From assembly GCF_004010195.1 (NCBI RefSeq), contig NC_057718.1, positions 95,685,158 to 95,749,157 of the forward strand: a DNA stretch of 64,000 bases, in the 5' to 3' direction. Both the position numbers and the translations under genes were made by a program. How positions within the stretch are numbered: position 1 is the stretch's first letter; every line of letters begins with the position of its first letter. The notes under the pieces are model-generated. The model was not told the origin of the DNA, ran no database searches, and saw only the letters and a list, made by a program, of their open reading frames with translations. Below, piece after piece: positions 1,807 through 63,385 of this stretch. This stretch comes from Chiloscyllium plagiosum. Its lineage: Eukaryota.

Positions 1807-1989
1807 TGTGGAGGTGCCGATATTGGACTGGGGTGGACAAAGTCAGAATTCACATGACACTGGTTAAAGTCTGACAGGTTTATTTGAAACTGCAAGCTTT
1901 TCGAACCCTGCTCCTCAGCCTAACCTGTCTGAGGAAGGAGCTGGACTCTGAAAGCTTGTGGTTCCAAATAAACCTTTTGGACTATAACG
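1807..1989. mobile_element. Penelope-derived fold-back mini-element, family B, with hammerhead motif
   Basis: Imperfect inverted repeat; perfect 12-bp TSD tagtttgcaaga (1795-1806 / 1990-2001); + arm CTGAGGA-A-GGAG-ctgga-CTCT-GAAAG-CTT at 1929-1957. Confidence 0.85.
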
Positions 1990-2299
1990 TAGTTTGCAAG
2001 AGATACAAGGTGAATGATTCACTTCTAAAAGGTCTCTGAGTTACCAGTGAATAGTCACAGATTACAACAATTGCTGAAGGAGAGATGTACCTGATTTTCT
2101 TCAGGTTTAAAATGGGTTTGCAAAGAGGCAGCTTTTGCGCTGGTGGTGATCAAAACTCTCTTCGGGAAGTTGTTCCCAGCTCCTTGTTGTTCAGTTACCT
2201 GACTGCCAATCAGATGGCTGTTGGCAGGCGAAATTCTCTTGTCATCAATAACTGGCCACTACTCCTTGGCCCAATCAACTTCTTGTTGCCACCCAGCTG

Positions 2300-4195
2300 C
2301 ATTTGTACACACAACCCCTTGGCTTGGGTTCATCTGCAACCACTTCAATTACTGTTGGTTCAGACTGCAGTTTACACCACGCTTGCCATAAGTATTAGTT
2401 TACTTGCTTTTCAAAACATGTGGCAGTCCTTCAAAACACTGGTTTTAAAACAGTTCTTTCTCATTTCAGTCCACAATTATAAAAAAAAGACACAAAAATA
2501 AAAAGACGTGGCCCTTTTAAAGCAGATATTGCCGGATACTCAATCACTCGTCTGATTTTCACATGCAGCGCAAAGTCTGGTGAAGCCTGAAGGCCAACCC
2601 ATGCATACAGATGTGCAAGTCTGACTGAGGGCCCAGAATGGTCAACATCAACAAGTGTGACAACATTGACAAAATGCAGACTGCTCTGAATGATGGGTCT
2701 AAATTCATATCCAGCAGACCTGGCATGAAGCATAACCTGCACAGTCATGTTGAAAGCGTGTAGTAAAATTTTGTAAGAGTGATGAATTTCTGATGGCGTT
2801 TCATGGCTGTTGTTTCACTGCATCCACGTACGTATGGGTTGCCCAAAACACACATTAATGACGTCTTTATACCCTGTCTTGTCTATGACTGGTTTAGCAC
2901 ATTGGCTGAATGGTTGTATGAGTTTCTACAATCCGTTCTGGGCTGGTTTTTCATAAACAAGGTCAAGGATTCCTTCACCTTTGTGAAGACTATACAAGGC
3001 CTGCATATCGATAGCAATGCCATGACCGTGTGCTTGTTCAATGTTACAAGCCTGCGTTTAACATTGCTCCAGAAAGCCGTAGACATTTGTATTATGTCAC
3101 CATGTCTTGGCACTTTGAAAGCATCACAATTATCTAAGTCTGTAATCATTGAATTATGAACTTAGTAACTCGTACAGTTGAGTTCAGTTTTATAACATCA
3201 CGCCTGCCCAAATAAATGGTGTTCCCTTGGGATTCCCTCTATGCCCAGCCCTCACTAACAGTTCCATCAGTTCCCCTAAGAAACACTTGTTATTGGACTG
3301 AGCCCTCAGAGCCTACCCTTTACATATTCCCAATACATAAATGATACATTTGAATCTACAGCTGCATGTAAAAAGTTGTAAGTAGGGCTTGAGCCATTTG
3401 GTCAATACATAGGCTTAATACTGAAATGGAGTGTATTCTCTGGGATATTAGCTACCATAAACTGATCATTGATGATTGTGCAAATTCATGAATGAGAAGG
3501 CTAACATAATTGATTCAGGAAAGTGCCAGGTTATCTCAGAGTACCTTGGATGAGTAGGATACCTTAGAAAAATTGAACATCAGCCGAAGCTCACTTATGC
3601 TACAATACAGCAGCAACATAAGTGGTATTGTCCACTAACAGAATGCTGCCATCAAGCCAAAAAGACATTCTGCGACTACACAATGAAATAAATGAATTTC
3701 AACGCCAGGTAACTAGGCTGTATTATACCAACCAGCATGTCCCAGTTGACAATAGGCAGAGTATTGACCGTGCTCAACAAGGCTGTTCTTGCAAAACTCA
3801 GACGGTTGGCATAACATTAAATATGATTCTGCAATAGGACAATACTAACTTAAGATTGTCATTTGTGCACCATTTACACTTGCAGGAGGCTTTATATGTT
3901 CATTTTCAGGGCTCTGTCCTGGTGAAAACAAAAGTAATATGTCCACATATTGCACCTTTTTCAACAAAGCAAAACATAGGAAAAGAAGCACTCCCTGGTA
4001 CATTCACCATGAAAAAGCCTTAACCAATCAGACTCTACTTGTCAACCAATCCTTCTATCATGCAGTATAAATCGTTGTTCCCTTTGAAACCTGGTATTCT
4101 TGCAATTCTGTCCTGATGAGAGCAAAATGAAAACCTTCAACAGCAACACTTTTTCTCAACAATAGTATTGATCTGCGTGACTACCAAATGACTAC
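2300..4195 (+). mobile_element. Degenerate Penelope-like retroelement (RT and GIY-YIG remnants, 3' pLTR), family C
   Basis: ORF 2803-3159 PRTYGLPKTH...LAEWL...VKDSFTF...CLFNVTSL resembles PLE RT; QINGVPLGFPLCPALTN near 3205-3260 (cf. QIDGVAMGSPLGP); YINDTF near 3330-3350; STNRMLPSSQKD..EFQ linker/endonuclease start 3622-3720; hammerhead-like motif 4113-4138; 5' limit approximate. Confidence 0.85.
4109..4142 (+). ncRNA. Degenerate minimal hammerhead ribozyme motif (family C)
   Basis: tgtc-CTGATGA-gagcaaaat-GAAAA-cc-TTC-aaca; core boxes present, stems partly mutated relative to the 52596-52631 copy. Confidence 0.55.
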
Positions 4196-4832
4196 CTTAA
4201 GAAAGTTGTTGAATATAAAGGTGGTTACCTCAATGTTGTTTCACTGCATTGCTTAAAAAATAATAAATCATTTAACTAAAGAACTGTCCTATAAAAGGTT
4301 TCACAAAGCAGCTTGGATACTTAAAATTCCATAGCAGTGGAAGGAAAATGGATAAGCTCTGCTGACATTGCGAATGTTTCCAGGGAAATGTGTCCTATCT
4401 GTTATATGTGTGCATTTTACAGTTCTGTCAGGGAGTGTTACTTTATTGGTGGAGGCATTCCCACAAGGAAACAGGGGAATTGGTGCATCAGATATGCTTT
4501 CACCTTCTCCTATCAGCAGTTATCTGCACATGAAAAGTTGCCTTAAAACCGACTTGGTAGAATTATGAACAAGTGAGATTTGCTGCACTTGATTTGTAAG
4601 GTGAGAGTTATCCGGTGATGCTAAAGAGGGGACAGAACTGTACTTTCACATTTCTTAAAGTCTGGTCAATCAGCCAACTTGGTAGTTGGATCTGCCTCAT
4701 GAAAATTGTCCTGTACTGTGTTTCCATCAAGGTCACCATCCTCAGGAATGGGAATGGGACACTCTCACCCAGAAGTGATTTATAGAGCTTATTTTCTTCC
4801 CTGACTAAGTCATGGGGAAACGCACAGTGAAG

Positions 4833-5045
4833 TGTGATTGATTTATTATTGTCACATGTATCGAGATGCAGTAAAAAGTACTGTTTTGTGTGCTAACCAG
4901 ACAAACCATACCTTACATAAGTACATCAGAGTAATTGAACAGAATGCAGAATACAGTGTTACAGCTACAGAGAAGGTGCAAAGAAAGATCAACTCTAATG
5001 TATGAGATATCTGTTCATAAATCTAATAACAATGGGGAAAAAAAA
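4833..5045 (-). mobile_element. Rex1/Babar-type LINE 3' end
   Basis: 'tgattgatttattattgtcacatgta...cagtaaaaagta' is the reverse of the Rex1-type tail seen at 5260-5330. Confidence 0.65.
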
Positions 5046-5259: not shown

Positions 5260-7700
5260 GTTGAATTGAATTGAATTGAATTGAATTGAATTTATTGTCA
5301 CGTGTCCCGAGGCACAGTGAAATGCTTTGTCTTACAAGCAATACAGGCAGATCATGGAGTTAAGTAGCATAGATAAGTAAATAACAGGTAAACAGCGGCA
5401 AAACCAAAAACACAGGTACAGGCAAATATTAAGAGTTGTGAGTCCATTCAGTATTCTAACAACACTAGGGTAGAAACTGTTACGAAACCGGCTGGTGCGT
5501 GTGTTCAGGCTTCTGTACCTTCTCCATGATGGTAGAGGTTGTAGAAAAACATTGCCAGGGTGGGATGGATCTTTGAGAATGCTGGCGGCCTTTCTTTGAC
5601 AACGGGCCTGGTAGATGGATTCTGTCGATGGGAAGTTGAGATTGTCCGGGCTGCGTTCACCACTCTCTGTAACCATCTCCAATCTTGAACGGGACAGTTG
5701 CCGTACCAGGTAATGATACATCCAGACAGAATGCTCTCGATGGCACATCTATAAAAGTTGGCAAGGGTATTCGCCGTCATGCCAAATTTCCTCAGCTGCT
5801 TGAGGACGAAGAGAATTGTTGGGCCTTTGTAACCAGTCTGTCTACATGAAGAGTCCAAGAAAGCTTTTTGTGGATGAGCTTGACACTCTCCACTTGTTCC
5901 ACCTCTGTTGCTGTTAATGTGTGTGTGTGTGTGTGTGTTGGGGGGGGGGGGGGGGGGGGGGGCATGGGTAACATCCCGCCAAAAGTCAATAATGGTTTCC
6001 TTGGTTTTGCCGGTATTGAGAGCTAGTTTGTTCTCAATACACCATTTTTCCAGATCTTCCACCTCCCGTCTGTAGTCTGTTTCATCACCATCTGAGATTC
6101 GACCGACTATGGTGGTGTCATCAGCGAACTTGTAAATGGCATTAGTCTGGTATTTGGCAACACAGTCACGGGTATACAGTGAGTACAGTAGGGGGCTGAG
6201 TACGCACCCCTAGGGGGCTCTGGTGTTGAGTGTTAGTGAAGATGTAACATTGTCCCCAATCTTCACTGATTGTGGCCTGTGCGTCAGGAAACTGAGGATC
6301 CAGTTGCAGAGAGTGGGGCTTAGTCCGAGATCACTAAGTTTAGTAATCAGTCTCAAGGAGATAATAGTGTAGAAGGCTGAACTTAGACAATGAGTAGGAT
6401 TCTTATGTAGCTGTTCTTGGTGTCAAGATGTTCTAGGGAGGAGTGAAGGCAAGTGATATGGCATCTGATGTGGATCTGTTGCTCCGATAGGCAAATTGGA
6501 GTGGGTCAAGAGTAGTGGGGAGGTTGGAGTTGATTAATACCATGACCAGCCTTTCAAAGCACTTCATGACCACCGAAGTTAGGGCCACTGGGCGGTAGTC
6601 ATTGAGACATGCTGCATGAGTCTTCTTAGGCACAGGGATGATGTTGGCCTTCTTGAAACAGGTAGGGACAGTGGCCTGCTGTAGGGAGAGGTTGGAGATG
6701 TCCGAGAAGACCTCTGCCAGTTGATCTGTGCATGCTCTGAGTGCACGGCGTGGTACTCCATCTGGTTCCATCACTTGGATTCACACGAAGGAAAACGGAT
6801 CTGACCTCTGATGCAGTGACTATTGGGACTTGTCAGAATAAGTGTTACCTCTCCACCAACATTCTGCTCAAAGTGAGCACAGAAGGCGTTGAGATGATCT
6901 GGGAGGGATGTGTCATCATCTGCTATCTTGCACTGTCTCTTTTTAGAATCTGTGATGTCATTCAGTCCTTGCCATAGTCACCAGGTGTCTATCTGGCTCT
7001 CTAGTTTGGATCGGTATTGGTCCTTGGCTGTCTTAATGGCTCTTGAAGGTCGTACTTGGATATTTGAGTGGGTCTCACACCTGGTTTTTAGCAGGTTCTG
7101 TATGTCCTGATTCATCCAGAGTTTCCTGTTGGGGAACACCCAGATTGAATTCCTCAGTATACAGCCCTCCACACACTTGCTGATAAAGTCTGTGACGGTG
7201 GTGGTGTACTTGTCCAAGGTACCTGCGGCCTGTTTGAACATGGCCCGATTAGCCAATTCCAGACAGCACCGGAGTTGATCCTCTGTCTCCTCCGACCAGC
7301 ACTGCACCTGTATCCACAAGGGAGTCTCTTGCTTGAGCTTTGGCCTGTAAGCCGGGAGAAGAAACATGGTATTGTGGTCGGAGTTCCCAAAATGAGGATG
7401 GAGAATGGAGCGGTAGGCATCCTTCACAGTGGTGTGGCAGTGGTTGAAAATGTTCGGACCCGTGTTGAGACAGGTAATGTTCTGGTGGTACTTGGACAAC
7501 ACCTTCCTTAGTTTGGCTTGATTGAAGTCACCAGTCACAATAAACAGGGCCTCGGGATGTTCCATCTCCAGGGTGTTGGTGGTGGAGTACAGCACATCCA
7601 GAGCTTCCTCAACCTTTGCTTGTGGTGGTTTGTACACAGCAGTTAGTATAGCAGCGGTAAATTCCTGTGGTAGGTAGAAGGGGCAGCATTTGATGGTGAG
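5260..7700 (-). mobile_element. Rex1/Babar-type LINE, 5'-truncated and frameshifted (APE end plus RT)
   Basis: ORF pieces VTGDFNQAKL (APE), [47 protein letters not shown] (about 6100-6135), LNTGKTKE, FYRCAIESIL, RTSRFRNSFYP; (ttcaa)n tail at 5260-5292. Confidence 0.92.
5918..5962. repeat. (TG)n microsatellite joined to a G homopolymer, inside the Rex1 element
   Basis: Direct reading: about 10 TG units followed by about 23 G. Confidence 0.95.
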
Positions 7701-7882
7701 GAATGGAATAGATGGGGCCTTGACAATTAGTCATTCAAAGCCAGACGAGAAAAGACGATATGGGCTGTGAGACGAGCCAAATAGTTTCATGGTTACAGTG
7801 CCGTTTGACCAATCCAGAGTTCGTGAGCTCAATAATATGTTGTGAAATTGAATTTAATAAATCTGACAATGTGTGGCTAGCA

Positions 7883-8328
7883 GGAAGTGAGGACTGCAGA
7901 TGCTGGAGAGCAGAGTCGAGAATGTGGTGCTGGAAAAGCGCAGCAGGTCAGGCAGCATCCGAGGAGCAGGAGAATCGATGTTTTGGGCATAAGCCCTTCA
8001 CCTGAATAAGGCTTGTGGGTCGGGGCTGAGAGTTAAATTGGGGGGGGTGGGGGGTGGTGGTGCGGTTGGGGGGATGTAACTGGAAAGCAATAGGTGGATG
8101 TAGGTGAGGGACAAGGTGATAGGAGGATGGTGCCGAGTTGGAGGCTTGGGACTGGGATAATGTGGATTTTAAGAGCTTCCTCATTTCCCCTTCCCCCACA
8201 TTATCCCAGTCCCAAGCCTCCAACTCGGATCCGAACCCGTCCATCACTGCCCCCTCCTACTTATCGATTCTCTGCTCCTCGGATGCTGCCTGACCTGCTG
8301 TGCTTTTCCAGCACCACACCCTCGAATC
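7883..8328. mobile_element. Penelope-derived fold-back element, family A
   Basis: Outer inverted arms plus a perfect 33-bp inner inverted repeat (8133-8165 / 8196-8228); 11-bp TSD tgtggctagca (7872-7882 / 8329-8339). Confidence 0.88.
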
Positions 8329-9169
8329 TGTGGCTAGCACCCATCAATGACATTAAGAGCTGCACTATTGCTGTAAACCCACAACTGGAATGTGTCGTCC
8401 CTGTGTGGGGCTGGCCTATGTGACTGCTGCCCCAGGCCAAGTGAATAGTTTTCAGTGGCCTTAGAGCAATTAATACAGTCTTTGCACTGTCGTCCCCGTC
8501 CCAACAACAGATTCAATATAGTAAAACTCAATTTATCCCTAAGAACGTATAGATTTAGTTGATTGTGAGTGTTACTGTATAAACTCTGTCACTGTCTTCT
8601 GCCCCAGGAAGTGACAGCACCTTCCCTGTGGCTAATAATTTTTGCAAGTTTTCCAAATGACATCTGAGTTTATTTATTTTTCTCTACATTTTGTGGAACT
8701 GTTAAAAACTTAACCACCGAATTGAGTTTTTAAAAAAATGCATAATGTGTTGATCAGCTGGTTGTTACACCAGAATTCCTCAGAATGAAGCTGTACAAAG
8801 TTATGCACTCCACACCTTGACTCACTAAGTCCCATTTCTGCACCAGTGTCATTTGCGCTAGATCTCCACTTTCTGTTAAATCCCAGGCCAACAATGCTGC
8901 AGAGAGCAAATGAAAAAGACTTAAAGAGGAACAAACAGCGGGTGATCAGGAGGCTCAATGTGACAGCTTGAAATTGAATTATGAGTTAGGCGGGTAACAG
9001 TGAGAGAGGGGGGAGCAGCACAATCCAACAGCCAGAGGATTAAAACCACATTTTCACTTTTGTGGTTTATGATGGGCTGAATGGCCTCCTTCTGTACAGT
9101 AACCATCCTCTGATTCCAATAACATCCAGGTTTTAAAGAACAAAGAGATCGAAAACCAAAACAACTTCA

Positions 9170-9555
9170 TGGAATAATAGCGTGGTGCAGAACAGCAGGG
9201 GCCATTTGGCCCATCACACCTGTGCCTGTAGCTCTGTAAGAAGTAGGAGAAAGTGAGGACTGCAGATGCTGGAGATCAGAGCTGAAAATGTGTTGCTGGA
9301 AAAGCGCAGCAGGTCAGGCAGCATCCAGGGAACAGGAGAATCGACGTTTCGGGCATAAGCCTGACCTGCTGCGCTTTTCCAGCAACACGTTTTCAGTTCT
9401 GTAAGAAGTAGCCAATTTGTTGGACTCTCTTGCTCTTTCCCATAGCTCTACACATTATTCCCCTTCACTTTTTAAACAATTATCACTTTTGAAAGTTACT
9501 ATTGATTCTACTTCCAATGCTCTTTCAGGCAGTGCAGTGTGGATCATCGCAACAT
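9170..9555 (-). mobile_element. Old CR1-type LINE 3' end, interrupted by a PLE mini-element
   Basis: 'ggccatttggcccatc' 3' stem-loop and 'ttgattctacttcca...tttcaggcagtgc' continue across the 9247-9401 insertion. Confidence 0.55.
9247..9401. mobile_element. Penelope-derived fold-back mini-element, family A
   Basis: Inverted arms with collapsed centre; TSD taagaagtag (9237-9246 / 9402-9411), extendable to 14 bp with tctg. Confidence 0.9.
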
Positions 9556-12394: not shown

Positions 12395-12950
12395 TTTTTT
12401 ATTATTCATTCATGGGATGTGGGCGTTCCTGGCCAAGCCAGCATTTATTGCTCTTTGCTGAAAAATGTGTTGCTGGAAAAGCGCAGCATGTCAGGCAGCA
12501 TCCAAGGAGAAGGAGAATCGACGTTTCGGGCATAAGTCCTTCTCCTTGGATGCTGCCTGACCTGCTGCGCTTTTCCAGCAACACATTTTTCAGCTCTGAT
12601 CTCCAGCATCTGCAGTCCTCACTTTCTCCTAATTTATTGCTCTTTTCCAATTACCCTGGAAAAACCGGTGATGGGTTGCTCTCTTGAACCACTGACAGTC
12701 CCTAGAGGTGTAGGGACACCAACAGTGCTGTGATGGAGAGAGTTGTGCAATATTGACCCAGCAACACTGAAGGAATGGTGAACTATGATCTTCTCAGGAT
12801 GGTGTGTGGCTTGGGGGTGGACCTTTCAGCTGGTGGTTTTCCCACTTGTTTGCTGCCCTTGCCCTTCTAGGTAATAGATGTCTCTGGTTTGGAAGTTGTT
12901 TGCAAGGGAGCTTAGATAATGCAGTGCACACTGTAGGTGCTACAAAGCCA
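12395..12950 (-). mobile_element. CR1-clade LINE (second tail type) 3' end, interrupted by a PLE mini-element
   Basis: 'ttattcattcatgggatgtgggcgttcctggccaagccagcatttattgc' reverse tail; continues after 12645. Confidence 0.75.
12457..12631. mobile_element. Penelope-derived fold-back mini-element, family A
   Basis: Near-perfect inverted arms; perfect 14-bp TSD atttattgctcttt (12443-12456 / 12632-12645). Confidence 0.92.
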
Positions 12951-19930: not shown

Positions 19931-20104
19931 TGGAGAAAGTGAGGACTGCAGATGCTGGAGACCAGAGTTGAAAAATGTGGTGCTGGAAAAACACAGCAGG
20001 CCAAGCAGCAGCCGAGGAAGGGCTAATGCCTGAAACGTCGATTCTCCTGCTCCTCGGATGCTGCCTGGCCTGCTATGTTTCTCCAGCACCACATTTTTCA
20101 ACAA
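19931..20104. mobile_element. Penelope-derived fold-back mini-element, family A
   Basis: Inverted arms; TSD taaatgatga (19918-19927 / 20105-20114); partial hammerhead 'agggctaatgcctgaaacgtc'. Confidence 0.88.
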
Positions 20105-23846: not shown

Positions 23847-23950
23847 AAACAAAAACAGAAATTGCTGGGAAAACTGAGCAGGTCAGGCAGCAACTGTGGA
23901 GAGAAAGCAGAGTTAATGTTTCAGTTCCAGTGACTGTTCTTCAGCACTTG
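23847..23950 (-). mobile_element. Penelope-derived single-arm insertion, family E, degenerate hammerhead
   Basis: Minus strand CTGAAGA-acagtcactggaact-GAAAC-ATT-aac; TSD tgtattg(c/t)agc (23836-23846 / 23951-23961). Confidence 0.7.
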
Positions 23951-23974: not shown

Positions 23975-24413
23975 CAGGCAGTCCCCAAGTTGTAAATGGG
24001 TTCTGTTCTGGAATATCAGAGTCGAAGAGTGCATGCTGGAAAAGCACAGCCGGTCAGGCAGCATGCGAGGAGCAGGAGAATCCTTGTTTCGGGCATAAGC
24101 CCTTCATCGGGAATTCCTGATGAAGGGCTTATGCCTGAAACGTTGATGCTCCTGCTCCTCAGATGATGCTTTTCCAACACGCACTCTTCGACTCTGATCT
24201 CCAGCACCTGCAGTCCTCACTTTCTCCTTTCTTGAATATGTTCCCAAGTCAATTTGTACATAAGTTGAAACACGATGCGGGACAACATAAAGGAGTCATT
24301 TGTAAGTGTAGGAAATGTTCATGTGTTGGGTGTCTAAATTATACCCCAGTATGAGATAGCTTTCTTAAGTATCAGCATTCGTAAGTCAGACGTTTCTAAA
24401 TTGAGAACCCCTA
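23975..24413. mobile_element. Tigger/pogo-like MITE (Tc1-mariner superfamily), interrupted by a PLE mini-element
   Basis: TA|caggcagtccccaagttgtaaatg ... cgtttctaaattgagaaccccta|TA degenerate TIRs; internal 'cgtaagt' repeats. Confidence 0.6.
24017..24228. mobile_element. Penelope-derived fold-back mini-element, family A, with two opposed hammerhead motifs
   Basis: Palindrome centred on gaattc (24111-24116); + arm CTGATGA-A-GGGC-ttat-GCCT-GAAAC-GTT from 24117; TSD ttct(g/t)gaatat (24006-24016 / 24229-24239). Confidence 0.92.
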
Positions 24414-32205: not shown

Positions 32206-32302
32206 GTTCCTGATGAAGGGCTTTTGCCCGAAACATCGATTTTCCTGCTCCTTGGATGCTGCCTGACCTGCTGTGCTTTTCCAGCTCCACTCTAATCTAA
32301 AA
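32206..32302 (+). mobile_element. Penelope-derived single-arm insertion, family A (hammerhead plus 3' segment)
   Basis: ttc-CTGATGA-A-GGGC-tttt-GCCC-GAAAC-ATC-gatt; 10-bp TSD actgtatgtg (32196-32205 / 32303-32312). Confidence 0.9.
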
Positions 32303-33269: not shown

Positions 33270-33905
33270 TCTTTTCATCTAATTCACTCATGGCTCGTGG
33301 ACATCGCTGGCTGGGCCAGCAGTTTTTGCCCACCCCATAGCTGTCCTTGAGGAGATGGTGGTGGGTTGCCTTCTTGATCAGCTGCAGTCCACTTGCTGTA
33401 GAGAGACACACAATTCCATCACGCAGGGAGTTCAAAGTCTTTGCGGTCAATAAAATGCGGAGCTGGAAAAAGCACAGCAGGCCGAGCAGCCTCAGTAAAG
33501 CAGGTCCTGATGAAGGGTTCTGCCCGAAACGCTGATTCTTCAGCTCTTCTGATGCTGCTTGACCTGCTGTGCTTTTTCCAGCTCCACATTTTATTGACTC
33601 TGACTTTCCAGCATCTGCAGTCCTCACTATCTCCAAGTTCCAAGATTTTGACTCCGTGGCACTGTAGGGGCAGTGATGTGTGTCCAAGTCACAATGGTGA
33701 GTGGCTTGAATTTGGAACTTGCAGGTAGTGGTCTCCCTGTGGTATTGCTGCCCTTGTCCTTCTAGATGGTAGCAGTCATGGATTTAGAAGGTGTTGTGGA
33801 AGGAACTTTGTCGAATTTCTGCAATGCATTTTGGAGATGTTACACACAGCCACTACTGAGCATCGGTGATGGAGGGAATGAATGTTCATGGTTGTGGTGC
33901 CAATC
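33270..33905 (-). mobile_element. CR1-clade LINE (second tail type) 3' part, interrupted by a PLE mini-element
   Basis: Homologous to 12395-12950 and 63455-64000. Confidence 0.75.
33445..33634. mobile_element. Penelope-derived fold-back mini-element, family A variant
   Basis: Inverted arms; CTGATGA-A-GGG-ttctg-CCC-GAAAC at 33507-33530; diverged TSD agttcaaagtctttg / agttccaagattttg. Confidence 0.85.
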
Positions 33906-39181: not shown

Positions 39182-39990
39182 TCATGCACAAACACATATA
39201 AGTTTGTGGGGTGAATCTGTACGTGCAGAATTACATTTTACTTTGCTCAAAAACTACATGAATCCATGTAAGATTTTGTAAATCTTGCAGGGTGGCACTG
39301 TGGCTCAGTGGTTAGCACTGCTGCCTCACAGCACAGGGTCCTAGGTTCAATTCCAGCCTCGGGTGACTTACTGTCTGAGTTTGCACATTCTTCCCCATAT
39401 CTGCAAGAGTTTCCTCTGGGTGCTTCAGTTTCCCCTCACAATCCAAGGATGTGTAGATCAGGTGAATTGGCCATGCTAAATTGCCCATAGTGTTAGATGC
39501 ATTAGTCCGAGAGAAATGGGTCTGGGTGGGTTACTCTTCGGAGGGTCAGTGTGGACTGGTTGGGCTGAAGGGCCTGTTTCCACACTGTAAGGAATCTAAT
39601 CTAAATCCCTTTTTTAGATTAGAATCAGTCCAACCATTGTGGCACAGACAGTCTCACATAGGGAAGCTCACACCTTCAATACATTATCTGGGCCAACATG
39701 ACACCAATTGTTAAAGTTCACTTGAGAAAGTAACTTTTAAAAAAGTTTGTGATTTACATATGAAAGAACTGAAACCAATGTGGTCATTCTAACAGATGAG
39801 AGACTTAACAAACAATCCAGGTCTTTTTCAACATATAATTTCAGTTACATCACACTGTGAACTTTTGCTATAAATTCTGTGTCCTACAATCTTATACTCC
39901 ACAACTACCCGATGAAGGAGCAAAGCTCCGAAAGCTAGTGCTTCCAGTTAAACCTGTTCGACTATAACCTGGTGTTGAGTCATTTTTAAC
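39182..39990 (+). mobile_element. Penelope-like element 3' region (family B) with nested HE1 SINE
   Basis: Ends in tac-CCGATGA-A-GGAGC-aaa-GCTCC-GAAAG-CTA-gtg (39906-39940) and 'cctgttcgactataacctggtgttgagtcatttttaac'. Confidence 0.8.
39289..39605 (+). mobile_element. HE1-type SINE nested in a PLE
   Basis: A-box tggctcagtgg, B-box ggttcaattcc, (tctaa) tail; 'taaatc' on both sides. Confidence 0.92.
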
Positions 39991-43846: not shown

Positions 43847-43989
43847 CAATGGGAGATATCTTGATTGCTGAGGAATCGATGGATCGAGAGCAATATTCTG
43901 CAGTTGGGGATGGGGACATTGAGCCGGAGGAACATACATGAGACTCTGATTATCTGTGCATCGTTGAACTTGAGAGACCAGACCTGTCA

Positions 43990-44303: not shown

Positions 44304-44306
44304 GAT

Positions 44307-44622: not shown

Positions 44623-44855
44623 AACCTGCTTCCACCATTTGGAATGAGTTGGGTTTGAACTTCCTTTCGTTGTGCTACCTCTAGTTGCTGATATTGTCAG
44701 TACGTGTGGACCTGTCTCTTTCTGCAGTCTGTGAATATTTCTACTGGATGAATAAATATTTTGTTCATCACATAGTTCCATGTGTAGTGTCTTTAGCTGA
44801 TACCACTGTGAAGAATCTGCATTTTACACGCATTCTACGCTTCTTACTTTTTTTT

Positions 44856-45055
44856 AAAGTCAGAAGTCACACGACACGGTTATAATCCAACAGGTTTATT
44901 TGAAGTCACAAGCTTTCGGAGCACTGCTCCTTCATCAGTTGAAGCCATTGCGGAGTTCCGAAAGCTTGTGATTTGAAATGAACCTGTTGGACTATAACCT
45001 GGTGTTGTGTGACTTCTGACTTTGTCTGCCCCAGTCCAACACTGGCACATCATGG
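44856..45055. mobile_element. Penelope-derived fold-back mini-element, family B
   Basis: Inverted arms; minus arm CTGATGA-A-GGAGC-agt-GCTCC-GAAAG-CTT (44910-44938) has an intact core; approximate TSD tac..tttttaa. Confidence 0.88.
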
Positions 45056-49023: not shown

Positions 49024-50510
49024 GGGCTGTGTGATGGCTCAGTGGTTAGCACTGCTGCCTCACAGCGCTTGGGACTTTCCGAAAGCCTTTGATAAGGTCC
49101 CACATAGGAGATTAGTGAGTAAAATTAGGGCACATGGTATTGGGGGTAAAATACTGACTTGGATTGAAAATTGGCTGGTTGACAGGAAGCAAAGGTAGTG
49201 ATAAACAGGTCACTTCGGAATGGCAGGCGGTGACCCAGTGGGGTACCACAAGGTTCGGTGCTGGGATCGCAGCTGTTTACAGTATACACTAATGATATCG
49301 ATAAAGGCATTTAAAGTAATATTAGCAAATTTGCTGATGACACAAAGCTGGGTGGCAGGGTGAAATGTGAGGAGGATGTTATGAGAATACAGGGTGACTT
49401 GGACAGGTTCGGTGAGTGGACAGATGCATGGCAGATGCAGTTTAATGTGGATAAATCTACTTTGGTAGCAAGAACAGGAAGGCAGATTACTATGTAAATG
49501 GAGTCAAGTTAGGTAAAGGGGAAGTATAATGAGATCTAGGTATTCTTGTACATCAGTCAATGAAAGCAAGCATGCAGGTACAGCAGGCAGTGAAGAAAGC
49601 TAATGGCATGCTGACCTTCATAACAAGAGGAATTGAGTATAGGAGCAGAGAGGTCTTTCTGCAGTTGTCCAAGGCCCTGGTGAGACCACACCTGGAGTAT
49701 TGTGTGCTGTTTTGGTCTCCAATTTTGAGGAAGCACATTCTGGCTATTGAGGGAGTGCCGCGTAGGTTCACAAGGTCAATTCCCGGAATGGCGGGACATT
49801 CATATGTTGAAAGATTGGAGCGACTGGGCTTGTACACACTTGAGTTTAGAAGGATGAGAGGGGATCAGATTGAGACGCATACGTTTATTAAAAGATTGGA
49901 CACTCTGGAGGTAGGAAGCATGTTTCTGCTGATGGGTGAGTCCAGAATCAGAGGACGCAGTTTAAAGATAAAGGGTAGGCCATTTAGAACAGAGTTGAGG
50001 AGAATCTTCTTCACCCAGAGAGTGGTGGGTGTATGGAATGCTCTGCCCCAGAAGGCAGTGGAGGCCCAGTCTCTGGATACTTTCAAGAAAGAGTTGGATA
50101 GAGCTCTTAAATATAGTGGAATCAAGGGATATTGGGATAAGGCAGGAACAGGATACTGATTAAGGATGATCAGCCATGATCATAGTGAATGATGGTGCTG
50201 GCTTGAAGGGCTATATGGCCTACTCCTGCACCTATTGTCTATTGACCAGGGTTTGATTCCTGCCTCAGGTGACTATCTGTGTGGAGTTTGCACATTTTCC
50301 CCGTGTCTACATGGGTTTCCCTTGGGTGCTCCAGTTTCCTCCCACAATCCAAATATGTGCAAGTTAGATGAATTGGCCATGCTAAATTGCCCACACTGTT
50401 GAGGGATGTGTTGGTTAGGTGTATTATTTTGGTTAAATGTAGGGGAATCGGTTACTCTCCAGAGGGTCAGTATGGACTTGTTGAGCCAAATGGCCTGTTC
50501 CCGCACTGCA
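49024..50510 (+). mobile_element. HE1-type SINE split between A and B boxes by a CR1 insertion
   Basis: Head 49024-49072; resumes at 50245 'accagggtttgattcc'. Confidence 0.88.
49072..50244 (+). mobile_element. CR1/HER1-type LINE, 5'-truncated RT to 3' end
   Basis: DFPKAFDKVPH, GVPQGSVLG, KFADDTKL, ORF 49560-50159 VRPHLEYC...FFTQRVVGVWNALP; (ctattgt) tail. Confidence 0.93.
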
Positions 50511-50550
50511 GGGCTTGTATTCTCATTCATTGTATTATCCTTTCAATAAA

Positions 50551-51028
50551 TAGAGTCATAAAGATACACAGCACAGAAACAAATCCTTCAGTCCATGCTA
50601 ACCAGATATCCTAGATTAATCTAGTCCCATTTTCCAGCATTTGGCCCATATCCCTCTAAACCCTTCCTGTTCATGTACACATCCAAATGCCGTTTTCAAT
50701 ATTGTAATTGTACCAGCCTTCACCACTTCCTCTGGCAGCTCATTCCATACATGCACCACTCTCTGAGTGAAAACATTGCCCCTTAGGTCCCCTTTAAATC
50801 TTTCCCTTTTCACCCTAAACCTATGCCCTCTAGTTCTGGACTTCCTCACCCCAGGGAAAAGACCTTGTCTATTTACCCTACCCATGCCCCTCATGGTTTT
50901 ATAAAACCCTATAAGGTCACCCCTCAGCTCCAGGGAAAACAGCCCCAGCCTATTCAGCCTCTCCCTTTTGCTCAAACCCTCCAACCCTGGCAACAACCTT
51001 GTAAATCATGTCTGAACCCTTTCAAGTT
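50551..51028 (-). mobile_element. CR1/HER1-type LINE 3' fragment
   Basis: ORF 50616-50996 MLPGLEGL...RTRGHRF...FTQRVVHVWNELP. Confidence 0.9.
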
Positions 51029-52571: not shown

Positions 52572-52790
52572 GGGTATTGCTGGACAAAGACATATTTATC
52601 GAAGCTTTTCATTTTGCACTCATCAGGACAATTCGCAAGAATGGCAGTGTAAGGGGAAACCAGTATTTACGCTGTAAGAGAGGTCTGTGCTGATTTGTCG
52701 GCAAGTCAGTGCTGATGAAGAGACTCTTGCTGAAAAGCTTTGAGAAAAATGTGTTTTTTTTTAGCAATTAACTGTTTTTAGTGCGACCTT
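52572..52790. mobile_element. Penelope-derived fold-back remnant, family C
   Basis: Minus arm 52572-52710 and a degenerate + arm 'ctgatgaagag..gaaaagctttgag..ttttttagcaat'. Confidence 0.7.
52596..52631 (-). ncRNA. Minimal type-I hammerhead ribozyme motif (family C), near-intact
   Basis: UUGUC-CUGAUGA-GU gcaaa AU-GAA-AAGCUU-C-GAUAA: stem I 5 bp with one G.U, 2-bp stem II, palindromic AAGCUU stem III. Confidence 0.7.
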
Positions 52791-53341
52791 ACAATAAACT
52801 GACTTGTTCTGTGAAGAAAGTATCTTTTCTTTGAGATTTGTGGTCTAATCTCTACTACTGATAAGTAGCCTTAGACTCAGTGCACAGAAAGGAGGATTGA
52901 TGACAGCAAACTGCCCGAATCAGAATAATGCAGCCTTCTGAAATCCACTAGACCTTAAATCCTAATTTAACAATGCTGAATATCAACATTCTTCTTGTTT
53001 TGAATTTCCAACAGCTCAATTTCAGAATGCGTGAATTACTTACAAGATGTGGTTCTTGCCACATGGTTTCCAAAGTGGAAACTCAAAATTTCCCCAAATG
53101 TTTGGAATAAATTTCGAGGAGGGCAATAAAGCATTTCCCAAGTGGAACAACTCTCCTCAGGCAAGCTGTTACTCTTTCTAATCACCAGATGAAAAATATT
53201 TTTACAGAAATCCAAGATTCGACCCCATGCCAATCCACAATGTCTGTGATGTTCAAAAGCGGGGGAGAAGGAGGATAAAACTTAAATTATTGCATAGGTC
53301 CCTTCCTGAAAAGAGTTGCTTCAGTATGGTTAACTTGAATT

Positions 53342-53653
53342 GGGGTGGCACGGTGGCTCAGTGGTTAGCACTGCTGCCTTACAGCGCCAGGGACCCAGGC
53401 TCGATTCCAGCCTTGGGTGACTGCCTGTGTGGTGTTTGCACATTCTCCCTGTGTCTGCAGTGGTTTACTCCAGGTGCTACGGTTTCCTCCCACAGTCCAA
53501 AGATGTGCAGGTCAGGTGAATTGGCCAAGCTAAATTGCCCATAGTGTTAGCTGCATTAGTCAGAGGATAATGGTCTGGGTGGGTTACTCTTCGGAGGGTC
53601 GGTGTGGACTGGTTGGGCCGAAGGGCCTGTTTCCACACTGTAGGAAATCTAAT
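53342..53653 (+). mobile_element. HE1-type SINE
   Basis: Full head to tail. Confidence 0.92.
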
Positions 53654-53769
53654 CTTGAAAGCTTGAAAATCCGACTTGAAAATATAATGCTTTCACTGAA
53701 CAGGATCCTCTGCAACCGTGAATGTACACCAGTGTGCTTTGAGAAACATTTTGAATTTGATTGACTAAA

Positions 53770-54866: not shown

Positions 54867-55298
54867 TTGAGATTTTGTAAATAAAGGTCCAGCACAAGAT
54901 CAAAAATGCAATGATGCAGTTGTCCAGATCATTGGTTGGAATGTAGCTACAGATTATTTGCAATCTTGGTCACCGCAATATGGAAACGTCGTAGATGCCA
55001 TAATGACCATACAGTGAGATTGTCCAGGATGATGTCTGAAATAGAAACTTTAGTTTGAAGATAAACCGAAGGTAGGGGGACTACTTCCACATAAGTGACA
55101 AGACTAGAGATTTAGGAGAGGTGTTTTTGATTGCAAAGAGTTTTTATTCAATGAATGGGAAGCACTATTTTCTCTTGTTAGGGAATCAATCGCCAGAGGT
55201 AATCAATTGAAATATGTTGAGAATGAAGAGAGAAATAAGAAGAAATTTGTTTATTGTGGATACTCATTGAAGGATGGAATGCTTTGCCAAATAGATAG

Positions 55299-55447
55299 GA
55301 AAGTCACCATAGTCCCACTCTTTCATGAGAGAGGTGGTGGTTTGACCCAAGGGTCATCACACCTCAGGCGAAAGGCAAGATTCATAGCAACCTCAGCTGG
55401 ACACACGTCGTGCCCCACAATGCATTGCAAACCAGCCATCTTAGCCA
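55299..55447 (-). mobile_element. Degenerate tRNA-SINE of another family
   Basis: 'aaagtcaccatagtccc...ggtggtggtttgacccaagggtcatcacacctcagg...gcaaaccagccatcttagcca'. Confidence 0.45.
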
Positions 55448-56272
55448 CGCGATTGCTTTGTCAGTTGGAACAGTTAAGGCAGTGATACTTGCAACTTTTA
55501 AAAGAAAATTCAATGAATGCTAGGCTCCAAAGAAGATAAATGGCCTTGAGATCATCTCAAGGCAGTGGGATTTTTTAGGTATCAAAGACTGCACAGGCCT
55601 AATATATCAGTGTTCTCATTTTGTGCAGTAAATGTTAATGATCAAATGCTCCTATGGCATTGGAAAAGTCACACCATTCACTGAAAATGGTGTGACTTAG
55701 TGCAGATCAAAATGCAAAGACAAAACCCTTCCCCCAGTACAAAAGAGAAGTCAAAGTAGCACAACCTAACTATTGTTACACCAATGTCCTTCAAGTAGAG
55801 GCAACAGATTGTACGTCTTACAACAAAAGCTGCACCTGAATTATGTCAGTGCTTAATGACCTGGGAATTAGAAAACTTGACCTCTTAGCTTTTTAGATGA
55901 CTTAATGGACGAAAATCTATGCCCTGTGTGACACTGAGCCGCACCGATTACGAAAGAGCATTGTTCCATCTCATCTCTACGTGGTTACTCGATCTCAGCT
56001 GGACTGCACTGAAGTTGGCCTCAGTGCCAGGGAGGGCAATAATCAGACAGGATTCTGCTCCTGATTGCTGTCCCATGCTGGAATTGTGTGCAGCTGTGTT
56101 GCAATCCACTGTCAAAAGGTCTGAAGGGACTCACCATCGAGAATCATACATGAAAAATGGGGTAACAGAGGTTAAAGGCATCACCAGAACTGTATCTTCA
56201 CACAAGCCAGTTTGTGACACTGCCTGTATTGTTTGTTTCATTGATTCTAATATCCAAGTCGTGCCTTTGATC

Positions 56273-56559: not shown

Positions 56560-57030
56560 CATTTCTTTTGCATTCGTGAGGTGCTGGCATCACTTGGCAA
56601 GGCCCCACGTTTATTGCGTGCCCCTTGCTACCCTTAAGAAAGTTATAGTCCGAGCAGCTTTCTTGAAGCGCTGCAGTCCATTTAATGGAGTTAAAAATCA
56701 CACAACACCAGGTTATAGTCCAACAGGTTTAATTGGAAGCCTTCATCAGGTGAAGGAGCAGCGCTCCAAAAGCTAGTGTGCTTCCAATTAAACCTGTTGG
56801 ACTATCACCTGGTGTTGTGTGATTTTTAACTTTGTACACCCCAGTCCAACACCAGCGTCTCCAAACCGTTTAATGGAAGGACTCTCGCAGTGCCATCAGG
56901 CATGGAACTTCACTCCATGTTTCTGATCAGCCAGGCTGGTGTGTGGACTGGAGAGAAGCTTACATTTGTTGGAAGCACCGTGTATGTGTTGGCCTTGTCG
57001 GCCCAAGTGGTAGACATTGCCAGTTTGGGT
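56560..57030 (-). mobile_element. CR1-clade LINE (second tail type) 3' part, interrupted by a PLE mini-element
   Basis: 'catcacttggcaaggcc..tttattgc...ttcttgaagcgctgcagtcca' reverse tail. Confidence 0.65.
56690..56865. mobile_element. Penelope-derived fold-back mini-element, family B
   Basis: About 50-bp near-perfect inverted arms; TSD cc(a/g)tttaatgga (56678-56689 / 56866-56877). Confidence 0.9.
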
Positions 57031-61266: not shown

Positions 61267-62190
61267 GTTGAAGAGTGTGGTGCTGGAAAAGCACAGCAGG
61301 TCAGGCAGCATCCGAAGAGCAGGAGCATCGATGTTTCAGGCATAAGTCCTTCATCAGGAATGTGGGGTGGGGGAAGGGGGCGAGTTGGAGGGTTGGATCT
61401 GGACTGAGGTGGGGGGAGGGGAGATGAGGAAACTGGTGAAATCGATGTTGATGCTGAGTGGTCAGAGGGTCCCAAGGTAGAAGATGAGGAGTTCTTCCTC
61501 CAGGGGTTGGGTGGCTTGGATTTAATGGTGGAGAAAGGTGGGCGGCACAGTGGCACAGTGGTTAGCACTGCTGCCTCACAGCGCCAGAGATCCGGGTTTA
61601 ATTCCCGCCTCCGGCGACTGACTGTGTGGAGTTTGCACGTTCTCCCCGTGTCTGCGTGGGTTTCCTCCGGGTGCTCCGGTTTCCTCCCACAGTCCAAAGA
61701 TGTGCAGGTCAGGTGAATTGGCCATGCTAAATTGCCCGTAGTGTTAGGTAAGGGGTAAATGTAGGAGTATGGGTGGGTTGCGCTTCGGCGGGTCGGTGTG
61801 GACTTGTTGGGCCGAAGGGCCTGTTTCCACACTGTAAGTAATCTAAAGCCCAGTACTTACTTGCCCTTGGGGGAGTGGGATGGGGAGTTGAAGTGGTTGG
61901 CCACAGAGCGATGGGGTTGTTTGGTGCATGTGTCCCAGGGATGTTCCCTGAAACGTTCTGCGAGTTGGTGTCCTGTCTCCACAATGTAGAGGAGAGCACA
62001 TCAAGTACAATGTACATTAGATGAGGTATTTGGATTGCAGGAAAATCACTGCTGGATGTGGAACGGTCTTTTGGGGCCTTGGATGGAGGTGAGAGGGTGG
62101 GTGTGGGCGCAGGTTTTACACCTCTTTTGGTGGCAAGGCAAAGTGTCGGGAGTGGAGGGTGGGTTGGTGGGGGCATAAACCTAAGGAGGG
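61267..62190 (-). mobile_element. Penelope-like element 3' part (family A; GIY-YIG remnant and hammerhead), left arm
   Basis: Minus strand RCKTCAH..IQGPKRPFHI..LLYIVETGHQLAERFREH; CTGATGA-A-GGAC-ttat-GCCT-GAAAC-ATC at 61330-61357; nested HE1. Confidence 0.88.
61540..61845 (+). mobile_element. HE1-type SINE (young subfamily) nested in the PLE left arm
   Basis: Full length, CpG-rich. Confidence 0.93.
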
Positions 62191-62294
62191 AAGGACCTTC
62201 TACACATCATCTACTGTGCCTGTTGCTCTCGATGTGGTCTCCTCTACACTGGCAAGACAGGTCACCAACTCAGGGATCATTTCAGGGAGCATCT

Positions 62295-62719
62295 GGCACG
62301 GTGGCTCAGTGGTTAGCACTGCAGCCTCACAGTACCAGGGTCCCAAGTTCGATTTCAACCTCGTGCGACTGTCTGGGTGGAGTTTGCACATTCTCCCTGT
62401 GTCTGCGGAAGTTTCCTCTGGGTGCTCTGGTTTCCTCCCACAGTCCAAAGATGCGCAGGTCAGGGGAATTGGTCATGCTAAATTGTCCTTAGTGTTCAAA
62501 GTTTGTGAGAAGATTTGTAGCTCGGGTGCTCATTGTTGTGGTTCTGTTCGCCGAGCTGGGAATTTGTGTTGCAGACGTTTCGTCCCCTGTGTCCTTAGTG
62601 TGTGGTGCATTTGTCAGAGGTAAATGGGTCTGGGTGGGTTACTCTTCGGAGGGTCAGTGTGGACTGGTTGGGTCGAAGGGCTTGTTTCCACATTGTATGG
62701 AATCTAATCTAAATCTAAT
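62295..62719 (+). mobile_element. HE1-type SINE nested in the PLE right arm, itself interrupted
   Basis: Head to (tctaa) tail with a 94-bp insert. Confidence 0.9.
62496..62589 (-). mobile_element. Penelope-derived terminal fragment, family D (3' half of a hammerhead)
   Basis: Minus strand ..GGGGAC-GAAAC-GTC-tgc...; perfect 12-bp TSD tgtccttagtgt (62484-62495 / 62590-62601). Confidence 0.75.
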
Positions 62720-63224
62720 TTCTGGTACACCTGCACCATGTCATGGGTCTTTTCCACTGCCAAATCCAAGCCACTTGATGCCTGGAGGAAGAACGCCTCA
62801 TTTTCTGCCTTGGAATCCTCCAACCATCCAGCATCAACATCAACTTCACCAGGTTCCTCGTCTCCCCTTGCCCCACCTCATCCCAGATCTAACCCTCTAA
62901 CTCAGCACCGCCCTCTAGAACTGTCCTACCTATCCATTCCTTCCCACCTATCCACTCCACTCTCCCATCCGACCTATCACCATCACCCCCCACCTGCATC
63001 TACCTACAGCCTTCCCAAATATGTCACACCCGACCCGCACCCCCATTCTCCTAATTACATCAGCCCCCTTCCCTCAGCCCACATTCCCGATGAAGGGCTT
63101 TTGCCCGAGACGTTGATTCTCCTGCTCCTCGGATCTGCCTGATCTGCTGTGCTTTTCCAGCACACCAACCTCATCTCTGGATTGACAGTCCAGTGATAAT
63201 ACCACGAAGCCATCGCGTCTCCAT

Positions 63225-63385
63225 ACGCTAACCAATCAGCATGTTTTTCTCATATAGTATCAAAATGTTATTTCTCTTTACATTGGTATTCTTGTGAATT
63301 GTCCTGAAGAGGGCAAGATGAAAAGATTCAACAAAATGTGTGTTTTTTTCGTGATACTTGAGTTCTGTCCTACCAAATAATATTC
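63225..63385 (+). mobile_element. Penelope pLTR fragment, family C
   Basis: 'ggtattcttgtgaattgtc-CTGAAGA-gggcaagat-GAAAAG-attc' homologous to 4093-4140. Confidence 0.7.

Follow-up and report, generated by a model that had tools for sequence, protein, structure and literature searches.

Minimal hammerhead ribozymes of Penelope-like retrotransposons (PLEs) are a known class, first described in 2014. In the sections of PMC4209133 considered here, those of the pseudo-LTRs of metazoan PLEs are reported from fishes, coelacanth, Xenopus, and reptiles, have a helix I of about 3-5 bp, and cleave weakly even as dimers; for dimer cleavage, Lunse et al. are cited in the part of PMC6765202 considered. The PLE ribozyme of the anole requires the element's own protein, and Frangieh et al. 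found cleavage to be unnecessary in vitro (PMC11167929, in part), while the function of the hammerhead is called unclear by Craig et al. (PMC8557442, in part). Related type-I hammerheads are carried by the non-LTR retrozymes of animals, known from one chondrichthyan according to the parts considered of PMC7229834 and bioRxiv 10.64898/2026.07.22.740005. A search of mostly open-access texts and few supplements retrieved no article dealing with PLE hammerheads of sharks or with copies that start at the ribozyme, and shark terms are absent from the searched part of the PMC4209133 supplement.

The DNA studied is a stretch of 64,000 nt of Chiloscyllium plagiosum (GCF_004010195.1, NC_057718.1, 95,685,158-95,749,157, forward strand), hereafter the window. 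Its motifs are, with a probability of about 90%, minimal type-I hammerheads in the terminal repeats of four PLE lineages, the remnants of which are short, truncated, or back-to-back, likely decaying neutrally and likely not cutting host RNA. Like the published minimal hammerheads, they have CUGANGA and GAAA boxes, an extra nucleotide after position 9, a G10.1-C11.1 pair, a palindromic helix III, and, as it appears, a short helix I, with several families per genome that occur mostly as single truncated copies and as opposite-strand pairs; unlike them, lineage C combines a stem II of 2 bp with the loss of the extra nucleotide, and stem I of lineage A is 2 bp long (PMC4209133, in part). The elements resemble EN+ PLEs (Neptune and Penelope/Poseidon) in their 5' truncation, partial tandems, optional tail, C-terminal GIY-YIG domain, and inverted 5'-truncated copy at the 5' end, and the Cys-rich linker before the endonuclease, by eye present in A and B as in Neptune and absent from C and D as in Penelope/Poseidon, gives a tentative, by-eye reading of the clades (PMC8557442, in part). 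With Poseidon of Anolis carolinensis (PAc) they share a ribozyme followed by a tail, although PAc has been characterised in vitro and the shark copies by sequence (PMC11167929, in part). The likeness to retrozymes lies in the type-I hammerheads, the relation to PLEs, and the non-coding nature. Retrozymes, however, form head-to-tail arrays of 170-400-nt units with typically canonical hammerheads, whereas the shark copies are solo or head-to-head with minimal cores (PMC7229834 and bioRxiv 10.64898/2026.07.22.740005, in part). Retrozyme identity was rejected because the motifs lie in no tandem array, a same-family, same-strand neighbour within 500 nt being found for 0 of 20 copies in the window and 0 of 94 in the background.

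Hammerhead lineages and their place behind Penelope-like genes

The catalytic boxes CUGANGA and GAAA, followed by U16.1 and H17, are the majority letters in every lineage. In A, B, D, E, and F, the extra nucleotide is followed by a G-C pair, or a CpG-decayed G-U pair, that closes helix II. The commonest helix III is ACGU in A, AGCU in B, and AAGCUU in C, and helix I measures 3 bp in B, 4-5 bp in C, 3 bp in D, and 4 bp in E; the 2 bp of stem I in A are followed by a U-U mismatch and then an A-U pair, which makes it shorter than most published helices I. The first-pass annotation had proposed about five families. Distinct lineages do exist, but A and E have a common 3' tail (local scores of 38-51, versus 11-21 for unrelated lineages) and, therefore, the lineages number four. 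Its proposal that stem II differs between families while the core is kept holds, and compensatory forms are seen in the stem II pair of A (G-C in 65 and A-U in 10 of 94 copies) and between the stems of D and F.

Motifs are present where that annotation had placed its 13 sites, and both boxes, intact or mutated, are found at 12 of them. Nonetheless, five (44910, 52600, 61330, 62575, and 23915) lie on the minus strand, with C3 at 44938, 52626, 61357, and 23944 and none in the D copy. This D copy lacks the CUGANGA box, which most of the 25 genomic D copies listed contain, and is, therefore, not a ribozyme. The core (CUGANGA, GAAA, U16.1, and H17) is perfect at nine of the 13 sites. A palindromic stem III, claimed for all, applies to the majority forms of the families but is kept in only four of these nine copies, and Watson-Crick closing pairs of stem I together with core and palindrome are found at two of the 13 (24117+ and 52626-). 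The window contains further copies, with 30 family matches in total, 20 of which span the core (Table 1).

Table 1. Hammerhead motifs and PLE remnants of the window (unlisted: absent from the first-pass list).
Position	Strand	Feature	Remarks
658..735	-	Lineage C remnant, C3 at 712	Unlisted
1840-1918	-	Deleted lineage B copy	Fold-back partner of the 1929..1957 core
1929..1957	+	Lineage B core (C3 to H17), perfect	AGCU palindrome; stem I by G-U pairs only
2794..4050	+	Degenerate remnant of a PLE-like RT, probably with EN, 5' of the lineage C motif	Numerous stops and frameshifts; 109 genomic relatives (E<=0.001)
4113..4138	+	Lineage C minimal hammerhead, perfect core	Helix III AACCUU, non-palindromic; stem I closing pair broken
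7911..8330	.	Lineage A fold-back insertion	Damaged core; unlisted
9277..9401	.	Lineage A fold-back	Truncated inside stem II; unlisted
12457..12594	.	Lineage A fold-back	First box truncated; unlisted
19967..20102	.	Lineage A fold-back	Core at 20012 (+) with U4>C; unlisted
23915..23944	-	Sub-lineage E minimal hammerhead, perfect boxes	Broken stem II; helix III ACAU; stem I closing pair broken; tail homologous to A
24015..24198	.	Head-to-head lineage A palindrome, centre 24113/24114	+ copy (core 24117-24144) intact, 2-bp stem I; - copy (C3 about 24110) with U4>C; predicted fold-back, -140 kcal/mol over 220 nt
32206..32302	+	Solo 97-bp lineage A mini-insertion, begins 4 nt 5' of C3	Core 32210-32237; helix III ACAU; 10-bp target-site duplication (32196-32205 and 32303-32312)
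33446..33598	.	Lineage A fold-back	+ core 33507-33533 with U16.1>C
39909..39937	+	Lineage B minimal hammerhead, long copy	U4>C; TATA-like box about 40 nt upstream
44856..45023	.	Lineage B fold-back	- core 44910-44938 perfect; AGCU palindrome; stem I closing pair broken
52601..52626	-	Lineage C minimal hammerhead, perfect core	AAGCUU; 5-bp stem I; 2-bp stem II; most complete site of the window; closest same-strand lineage C copy 51.9 kb off
56689..56832	.	Lineage B fold-back	Damaged cores; unlisted
61330..61357	-	Lineage A minimal hammerhead, perfect core	Helix III ACAU; single stem II mismatch
61408..62171	-	Remnant of a GIY-YIG endonuclease, 5' of the 61357 motif	Interrupted by a SINE (about 61540-61844); tblastn E 4e-33 and 2e-9 (query a natural genomic frame)
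62496..62589	-	Lineage D 3' fragment, begins inside stem II	No CUGANGA box; within a SINE; 12-bp target-site duplication (62484-62495 and 62590-62601)
62740..62907	+	Remnant of the C-terminal part of a GIY-YIG endonuclease, 5' of the 63087 motif	tblastn E 1e-11
63087..63114	+	Lineage A motif, two core changes	U4>C and A14>G
63304..63329	+	Lineage C motif, perfect boxes	Helix III AAGAUU, non-palindromic; stem I closing pair broken

The tie to PLE minimal type-I hammerheads was borne out. At 18 of 20 loci with a GIY-YIG endonuclease, a lineage A motif follows downstream on the same strand, at a distance of about 200 nt from the gene, and it also follows an endonuclease remnant at two sites of the window. 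Four of five lineage A-linked frames match GIY-YIG in Pfam, with E values from 2e-5 to 1e-3, and one of these matches exceeds the curated cut-off. The motifs of B, C, D, and E lie downstream of frames that we take, by eye and from known PLE motifs, to be PLE-like RT/EN; on the same grounds, the remnant at 2794..4050 is presumably a PLE. Pfam gave no match for three D frames, and the three B frames run against it were other than the endonuclease frame. None of seven degenerate window remnants translated with X, the one at 2794..4050 included, was matched. Among the long frames of the window, 15 of 38 run against Pfam gave LINE-type matches only (RVT_1 and ALKBH8_N), with no host exon indicated. 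At one locus (L196), an inverted copy accompanies a partial D tandem, in which two ribozymes on the same strand are separated by 311 nt. No intact full-length element with both repeats was seen, and 11 loci with 'frames' of 795-1344 aa, considered as intact elements, proved to be assembly gaps.

Copy ends and the template of reverse transcription

The 5' ends of the copies were counted in 80 random stretches and with 41 references, both arms of palindromes being included (70 of 119). Short copies dominate lineage A, the 5' end lying within 100 nt of C3 in 100 of 119. In these short copies, it falls between -7 and +5 of C3 in 46 of 100 and at the cut site in four; when the count is restricted to solo copies, 14 of 32 fall in this 13-nt interval around C3. 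For short B copies, the corresponding values are 13 of 41 and two. Target-site duplications flank 14 of 55 solo A copies, versus a control mean of 2.65, and the 5' ends that they define lie between -13 and +8 in 11 of 14, with one copy, which has a 16-bp duplication, beginning at the cut site. Duplications in B (2/14) and E (3/31) are not above control. The 5' ends of D (52, mostly search-selected) show no clear cluster, with few near the predicted start (-23, -23, -26, and -27) and four at +15/16. The sections covered of the PAc study do not mention 5'-end clustering at the ribozyme (PMC11167929).

Given that the 5' ends lie at the edge of the ribozyme and not at the cut site, the sequences suggest that the short copies were made from uncut RNA, and that the point at which they start is probably the transcription start. 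The scarcity of cut-site starts matches PAc, where unprocessed RNA is the main template, and the two 3' ends of the shark copies, at about 90 and about 120-130 nt after C3, the spacing of which fits an optional tail of 30-40 nt, match (at about +89 and +117-129) the internal start of reverse transcription in PAc at two sites 30-40 nt apart (PMC11167929, in part). A putative TATA box lies 40-53 nt upstream of C3 in B, C, and D; no canonical one was found upstream of A, which has an initiator-like TCATTC at -4. The Penelope element of D. virilis has a splice acceptor just 5' of helix I; for A, such an acceptor was rejected, no AG being present at that position.

It could alternatively be proposed that a distinct non-autonomous family, similar to SINEs or retrozymes and multiplying from short masters with PLE protein, accounts for both the 90-135-bp copies and the palindromes. 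The dominance of short copies and their target-site duplications would agree with this, and non-autonomous PLE derivatives have been described. Nonetheless, this origin appears improbable: the 5' ends scatter across some 20 nt, palindrome junctions vary among copies, tandem arrays such as those of retrozymes are absent, copies beginning at C3 have no upstream TATA-like box, and, by eye, the short copies share subfamily variants with the long endonuclease-linked ones.

Copying from the uncut RNA of the PLEs themselves would proceed as follows. Transcription would begin a little 5' of the ribozyme. Priming at the first tail site of the uncut RNA would let reverse transcription run to the 5' end of this RNA and leave copies of 90-135 bp, and a fold-back or template switching at the 5' end of the RNA would give the palindromes. 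We put forward tentatively, at somewhat less than even odds, that the copies, on the order of at least 100,000, are a fossil record of germ-line PLE reverse transcription, in which Pol II would start a few bases before the hammerhead, either tail site would be primed, and the uncut RNA would be copied to its 5' end, giving ribozyme-first mini-insertions and palindromes.

Decay of the copies and cutting of host RNA

The earlier explanation of ACAU as CpG decay is confirmed by the counts, helix III of family A being ACGU in 32, ACAU in 24, and AUGU in 11 of 78 copies; the non-CpG AGCU of family B is intact in 22 of 25, and in family E ACAU (8) exceeds ACGU (6). Copies with every feature intact number 19 of 78 in A, 5 of 25 in B, and 2 of 30 in E. 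Within families, the core is not conserved consistently better than the tail: its advantage is slight in A (divergence of 4.1% in the core versus 5.9% in monomorphic tail columns, p=0.05) and in C (5.0% versus 10.0%, p=0.03, search-selected copies), but reversed in B (8.9% versus 5.0% in the tail, p=0.03) and not significant in E. Variants shared among family A copies occupy none of nine non-CpG core columns versus nine of 48 tail columns. Given that the core is slightly better kept in A and C, some selection may act on the dispersed copies; more probably, as the compensatory stem forms and the variant-free core columns of A suggest, the core was maintained by selection in the active master elements and not in the dispersed copies.

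The first-pass annotation had further inferred that about one motif per 5 kb could influence the processing of host transcripts, which requires that the dispersed hammerheads cut pre-mRNAs crossing the region, as cis dimers or by trans pairing. Some observations point in this direction: 15 sites with core, palindrome, and a stem I of at least 3 bp are found in 785 kb of random DNA, versus none in two resampled controls, family A sequence abounds in poly(A) RNA from both strands, and in A and C the core has changed slightly less than the tail. The density of the window is, however, ordinary and that of the genome background, with 20 core-spanning copies in 63 kb versus 0.23 per kb in 80 random 10-kb stretches, or about one motif per 4 kb genome-wide. 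Only the two sites named above are intact, palindromes of helix III decay at CpG, a same-family partner on the same strand within 500 nt is absent from all 20 window and 94 background copies, and fold-backs, the pairs of which would absorb the core, hold 20 of the 30 window copies. Together, background density, damage, missing dimer partners, and fold-backs leave the inference on host processing unsupported.

Read ends do not pile up in one 3' poly(A) single-cell run, a weak test in which about 2% of the run was read; position 32235, 2 nt from the cut, is covered by 989 reads, 13 of the 30 bins into which the region 23.7-34 kb was divided are without reads, and just 21 of 3,543 reads have at least 99% identity. 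In the anole, the ribozyme without its protein gives no cleavage, and no RNA-seq reads end at its site (PMC11167929, in part). It is unlikely, as judged from the structure of the copies, that broken, unpaired, or back-to-back hammerheads cut host RNA, and such cutting across the region as a whole appears very improbable.

Excess over chance, copy number, and significance

That the motifs are chance matches in repeat-rich DNA can be practically dismissed: although the descriptor with one core mismatch also matches shuffled DNA (42 in the window versus 14-29) and a few perfect-core matches lie outside any family found (e.g., 27327, 49334, and 59752), the perfect-core descriptor gives 13 window matches versus 0-2 per dinucleotide shuffle (12 shuffles) and 70 versus 6-10 in 785 kb, and the same architecture recurs in four tail-unrelated lineages at a fixed position behind PLE genes, so that this excess and position refute a chance origin for the family members. 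The Rfam search proposed as a check, which could be read in favour of chance, returned no hammerhead family among 26 window matches (E<=10), probably because its models expect a real helix III.

Core-spanning remnants number about 0.23 per kb, and perfect-core matches, net, about 60 per 785 kb. Extrapolated to the genome, these densities correspond to roughly 0.7-1.0 million remnants and 0.3 million perfect cores, respectively. These totals are far above the approximately 4,000 of coelacanth and 9,000 of Xenopus in PMC4209133 (in part), the descriptors being different. As an extrapolation with a descriptor unlike the published ones, the copy number is perhaps among the highest for hammerhead motifs in any genome.

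The 5' ends of the short copies offer a way to ask, from DNA only, if the ribozyme cuts the RNA that is reverse-transcribed. If the copies do record germ-line reverse transcription of uncut RNA, the near-absence of cut-site starts would be genome-scale evidence that the template is made by a step other than hammerhead cleavage; the role of the ribozyme would then be to remove the capped 5' end of the mRNA.

Hammerhead motifs and their lineages

The sequences that the first-pass annotation had described as hammerhead motifs were present at 13 of 13 places, five of them on the minus strand. Under a strict descriptor, which requires both boxes (CUGANGA and GAAA) without mismatch together with stem II and a short helix III, the window has 13 matches and each of 12 dinucleotide-shuffled versions has 0-2. 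Tolerating one core mismatch raises these figures to 42 and to 14-29 per shuffle. The hammerhead family is absent among the 26 Rfam matches of the window at E<=10. Site-by-site reading shows that the perfect core is kept at 9 of the 13 sites, with core changes at 39909, 33507 and 63087. The palindromic stem III proposed for all sites holds for four of the nine perfect-core copies (1929+, 44938-, 52626- and 24117+) and fails in the others; Watson-Crick stem I closing pairs accompany palindrome and perfect core only at 52626- and 24117+. The D copy has no first box, its 5' end lying within stem II, and its insertion into a SINE shows a target-site duplication of 12 bp; most of the relatives displayed from elsewhere in the genome are complete.

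Profiles built from natural copies give 30 family matches in the window, of which 20 span the core. Five distinct families had been proposed. Separate lineages do exist, but given that A and E have a common tail, and that another is common to D and a sixth form, F, found only outside the window, they amount to four. Form F (loci L130, L135 and L149) is the sister form of D, shows compensatory changes in both stem I and stem II, and has 17 matches in the 785-kb background and none in the window.

Two further arrangements were observed. At 48573-48631, two perfect-core motifs on opposite strands use one AAGCTT palindrome as common helix III; they match none of six family profiles and represent either chance or an unrecognised element. 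At 52712-52756 (+), a perfect-core motif that has AAGCUU and whose stem II is longer lies head-to-head with the C copy at 52626, with which its tail is 85% identical over 26 nt, and is possibly a C sub-lineage. The other repeats include tRNA-like SINEs, presumably of the shark HE1/V-SINE type, nested and inverted at 41109-41749, and LINE remnants that we take to be CR1/L2-type. The frame at 55108-55485 may represent either an exon or what is left of an element.

Coordinates of features in the window (LINE remnants are of two kinds)
Feature	Position	Strand	Remark
Short A copy	32206-32302		Start at ribozyme edge; example of mini-insertion
tRNA-like SINE	39289-39607
tRNA-like SINE	40007-40398
tRNA-like SINE	41038-41749
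tRNA-like SINE	43986-44625
tRNA-like SINE	50195-50528
tRNA-like SINE	53337-53660
tRNA-like SINE	61534-61854
tRNA-like SINE	62285-62715
LINE remnant	5332-7730	-	Pfam RVT_1, ALKBH8_N-like (LINE remnants)
LINE remnant	46509-46931	+
LINE remnant	49533-50159	+
LINE remnant	50616-51005	-
125-aa open frame	55108-55485	+	A/G-rich stretch; no Pfam match

Penelope-like elements and genome-wide density

A natural GIY-YIG endonuclease (EN) frame used as query gave 129,346 first-look candidates in the genome. In 18 of the 20 loci listed (one is the query locus and one is partial), family A lies downstream in the same orientation, in most cases about 200 nt past the frame, and Pfam GIY-YIG is matched by four of five such frames, one of which exceeds the cut-off. 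In the window, the motifs at 61357 and 63087 have EN remnants on their upstream side, and the one at 4113 has a reverse transcriptase (RT)-like remnant there. Elsewhere, B, C and D copies stand behind frames resembling those of Penelope-like elements (PLEs) in translations read by eye, with Pfam support for none of those submitted. A Cys-rich linker is seen by eye in A and B and not in C and D; it is Neptune-like by the definition in PMC8557442. One locus (L196) has the textbook layout of a partial tandem and an inverted copy. No intact element was recovered among the long-frame loci, because the long frames proved to be assembly gaps. Such a gap, of 739 N, lies within a LINE remnant at about 21030-21770, and similar ones break up most long PLE copies retrieved. 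At L174:382-1872, the reading frame of a CR1-type RT fragment continues unbroken into a truncated PLE RT-endonuclease; the resulting chimeric open frame has 497 aa.

The motifs agree with the minimal type-I hammerheads of PLEs described in PMC4209133, which already records single truncated copies and opposite-strand pairs and reports weak dimer cleavage. They are further members of this known class, at very high copy number and mostly decayed. The background sample, drawn at round coordinates from chromosome-scale contigs as 80 stretches of 10 kb (785 kb once N are removed), contains 257 family matches, of which 182 span the core, or 0.23 per kb (bootstrap 0.19-0.27), close to the 0.32 per kb of the window. 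The strict descriptor finds 70 matches there, and two resampled controls yield 10 and 6; adding the palindrome and a stem I of at least 3 bp leaves 15 sites in the background and none in the controls. Extrapolated to the 3.56-Gb assembly, remnants would number about 0.7-1.0 million and perfect cores about 0.3 million, by a descriptor unlike the published one.

Ends and origin of the short copies

In the 80 background stretches, the 5' end lies within 100 nt of core position C3 in 100 of 119 A copies. Counting both arms of palindromes, 46 of these 100 ends fall at -7 to +5 of C3 versus 7.4 expected if uniform, and four at the cut site versus 3.4; for B the counts are 13 and 2 of 41. Solo A copies alone give 14 of 32 at -7 to +5. 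Target-site duplications, which define copy ends independently of reference sequences, flank 14 of the 55 solo A copies, against a mean of 2.65 in controls; 11 of these 14 start at -13 to +8 and one at the cut site, with 3' ends near +89 or +117-129. These two 3' ends correspond to the two internal priming sites of the anole element PAc (PMC11167929).

The likeliest reading is that uncut RNA was reverse-transcribed from the first tail site through to the RNA 5' end. A possible alternative is a reverse-transcriptase stop just beyond stem II, which would leave a similar 5'-end distribution. Clustering of the ends at the ribozyme is the one potentially new finding: a literature search, with subscription journals mostly outside its scope, found no paper on it.

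Promoter-like signals bear on where such an RNA would begin. Long copies carry a TATAAA-type box 40 nt (B), 46-47 nt (C) or 53 nt (D) upstream of C3, and B 5' ends at -8/-9 are consistent with a start about 31 nt past the box, which is the expected spacing. In family A the only such signal is an initiator-like TCATTC whose A lies at -4; D 5' ends form no clear cluster. In D. virilis Penelope, too, transcription begins a short distance 5' of the ribozyme, although the promoter is TATA-less. C ribozymes are preceded, at a distance of 45-75 nt, by boxes resembling CCAAT and TATAAAT (e.g., within 4023-4112 and 63214-63303), which suggest a conventional Pol II promoter in the lineage C terminal repeat.

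Decay of the copies and possible cleavage of host RNA

Across lineages the boxes are constant while stems I and II vary; within families the pattern is decay. One stem II pair of A is G-C in 65 and A-U in 10 of 94 copies, probably a single exchange in a master element. Helix III of A (n=78) reads ACGU in 32, ACAU in 24 and AUGU in 11 copies, while 22 of 25 B copies retain their non-CpG AGCU. G12, within a CpG, is altered in 12 of 93 copies of A and in 10 of 30 of B. Core conservation relative to the flanks was found only in part. With non-CpG core columns (C3 and G12 excluded) set against tail columns without a shared variant, core divergence is lower in A (4.1% vs 5.9%, p=0.05), C (5.0% vs 10.0%, p=0.03, search-selected copies) and E (8.2% vs 11.5%, p=0.13), but higher in B (8.9% vs 5.0%, p=0.03). 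This sequence comparison gives a mixed picture, in which selection on the dispersed copies is possible but not demonstrated. The share of copies with every feature intact is 19 of 78 in A, 5 of 25 in B, 4 of 28 in C and 2 of 30 in E.

Given that helix III and stem I pair between copies (PMC4209133), a dimer can form only where one RNA carries two copies of one family. No same-strand partner of this kind lies within 500 nt of any of the 20 window copies or of any of the 94 copies in the first 40 background stretches; within 2 kb, two window and six background copies have one, and both members of the window pair (32210, 33507) are damaged. Opposite-strand pairing involves 20 of 30 window and 65 of 126 background matches, and long hairpins absorbing the core are predicted at three of the four best sites. 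In X5, a poly(A) single-cell RNA run of which about 2% was read, the repeats collect reads on both strands that stem from other copies; over 23.7-34 kb, 13 of 30 bins have no reads and no read ends pile up, with 989 reads across 32235, a weak test in such a library. PMC11167929 reports no cleavage by the PAc ribozyme without protein and no RNA-seq reads ending at its site. The suggestion that these motifs influence host-transcript processing is not borne out by the few intact sites, missing near partners and fold-back pairs, and such processing is very improbable.

Family A sequence is frequent in poly(A) RNA on both strands (X5 reads, 24044-24387 and 31956-32299). The many fold-back copies would yield long double-stranded RNA, a possible substrate for editing or small RNAs.
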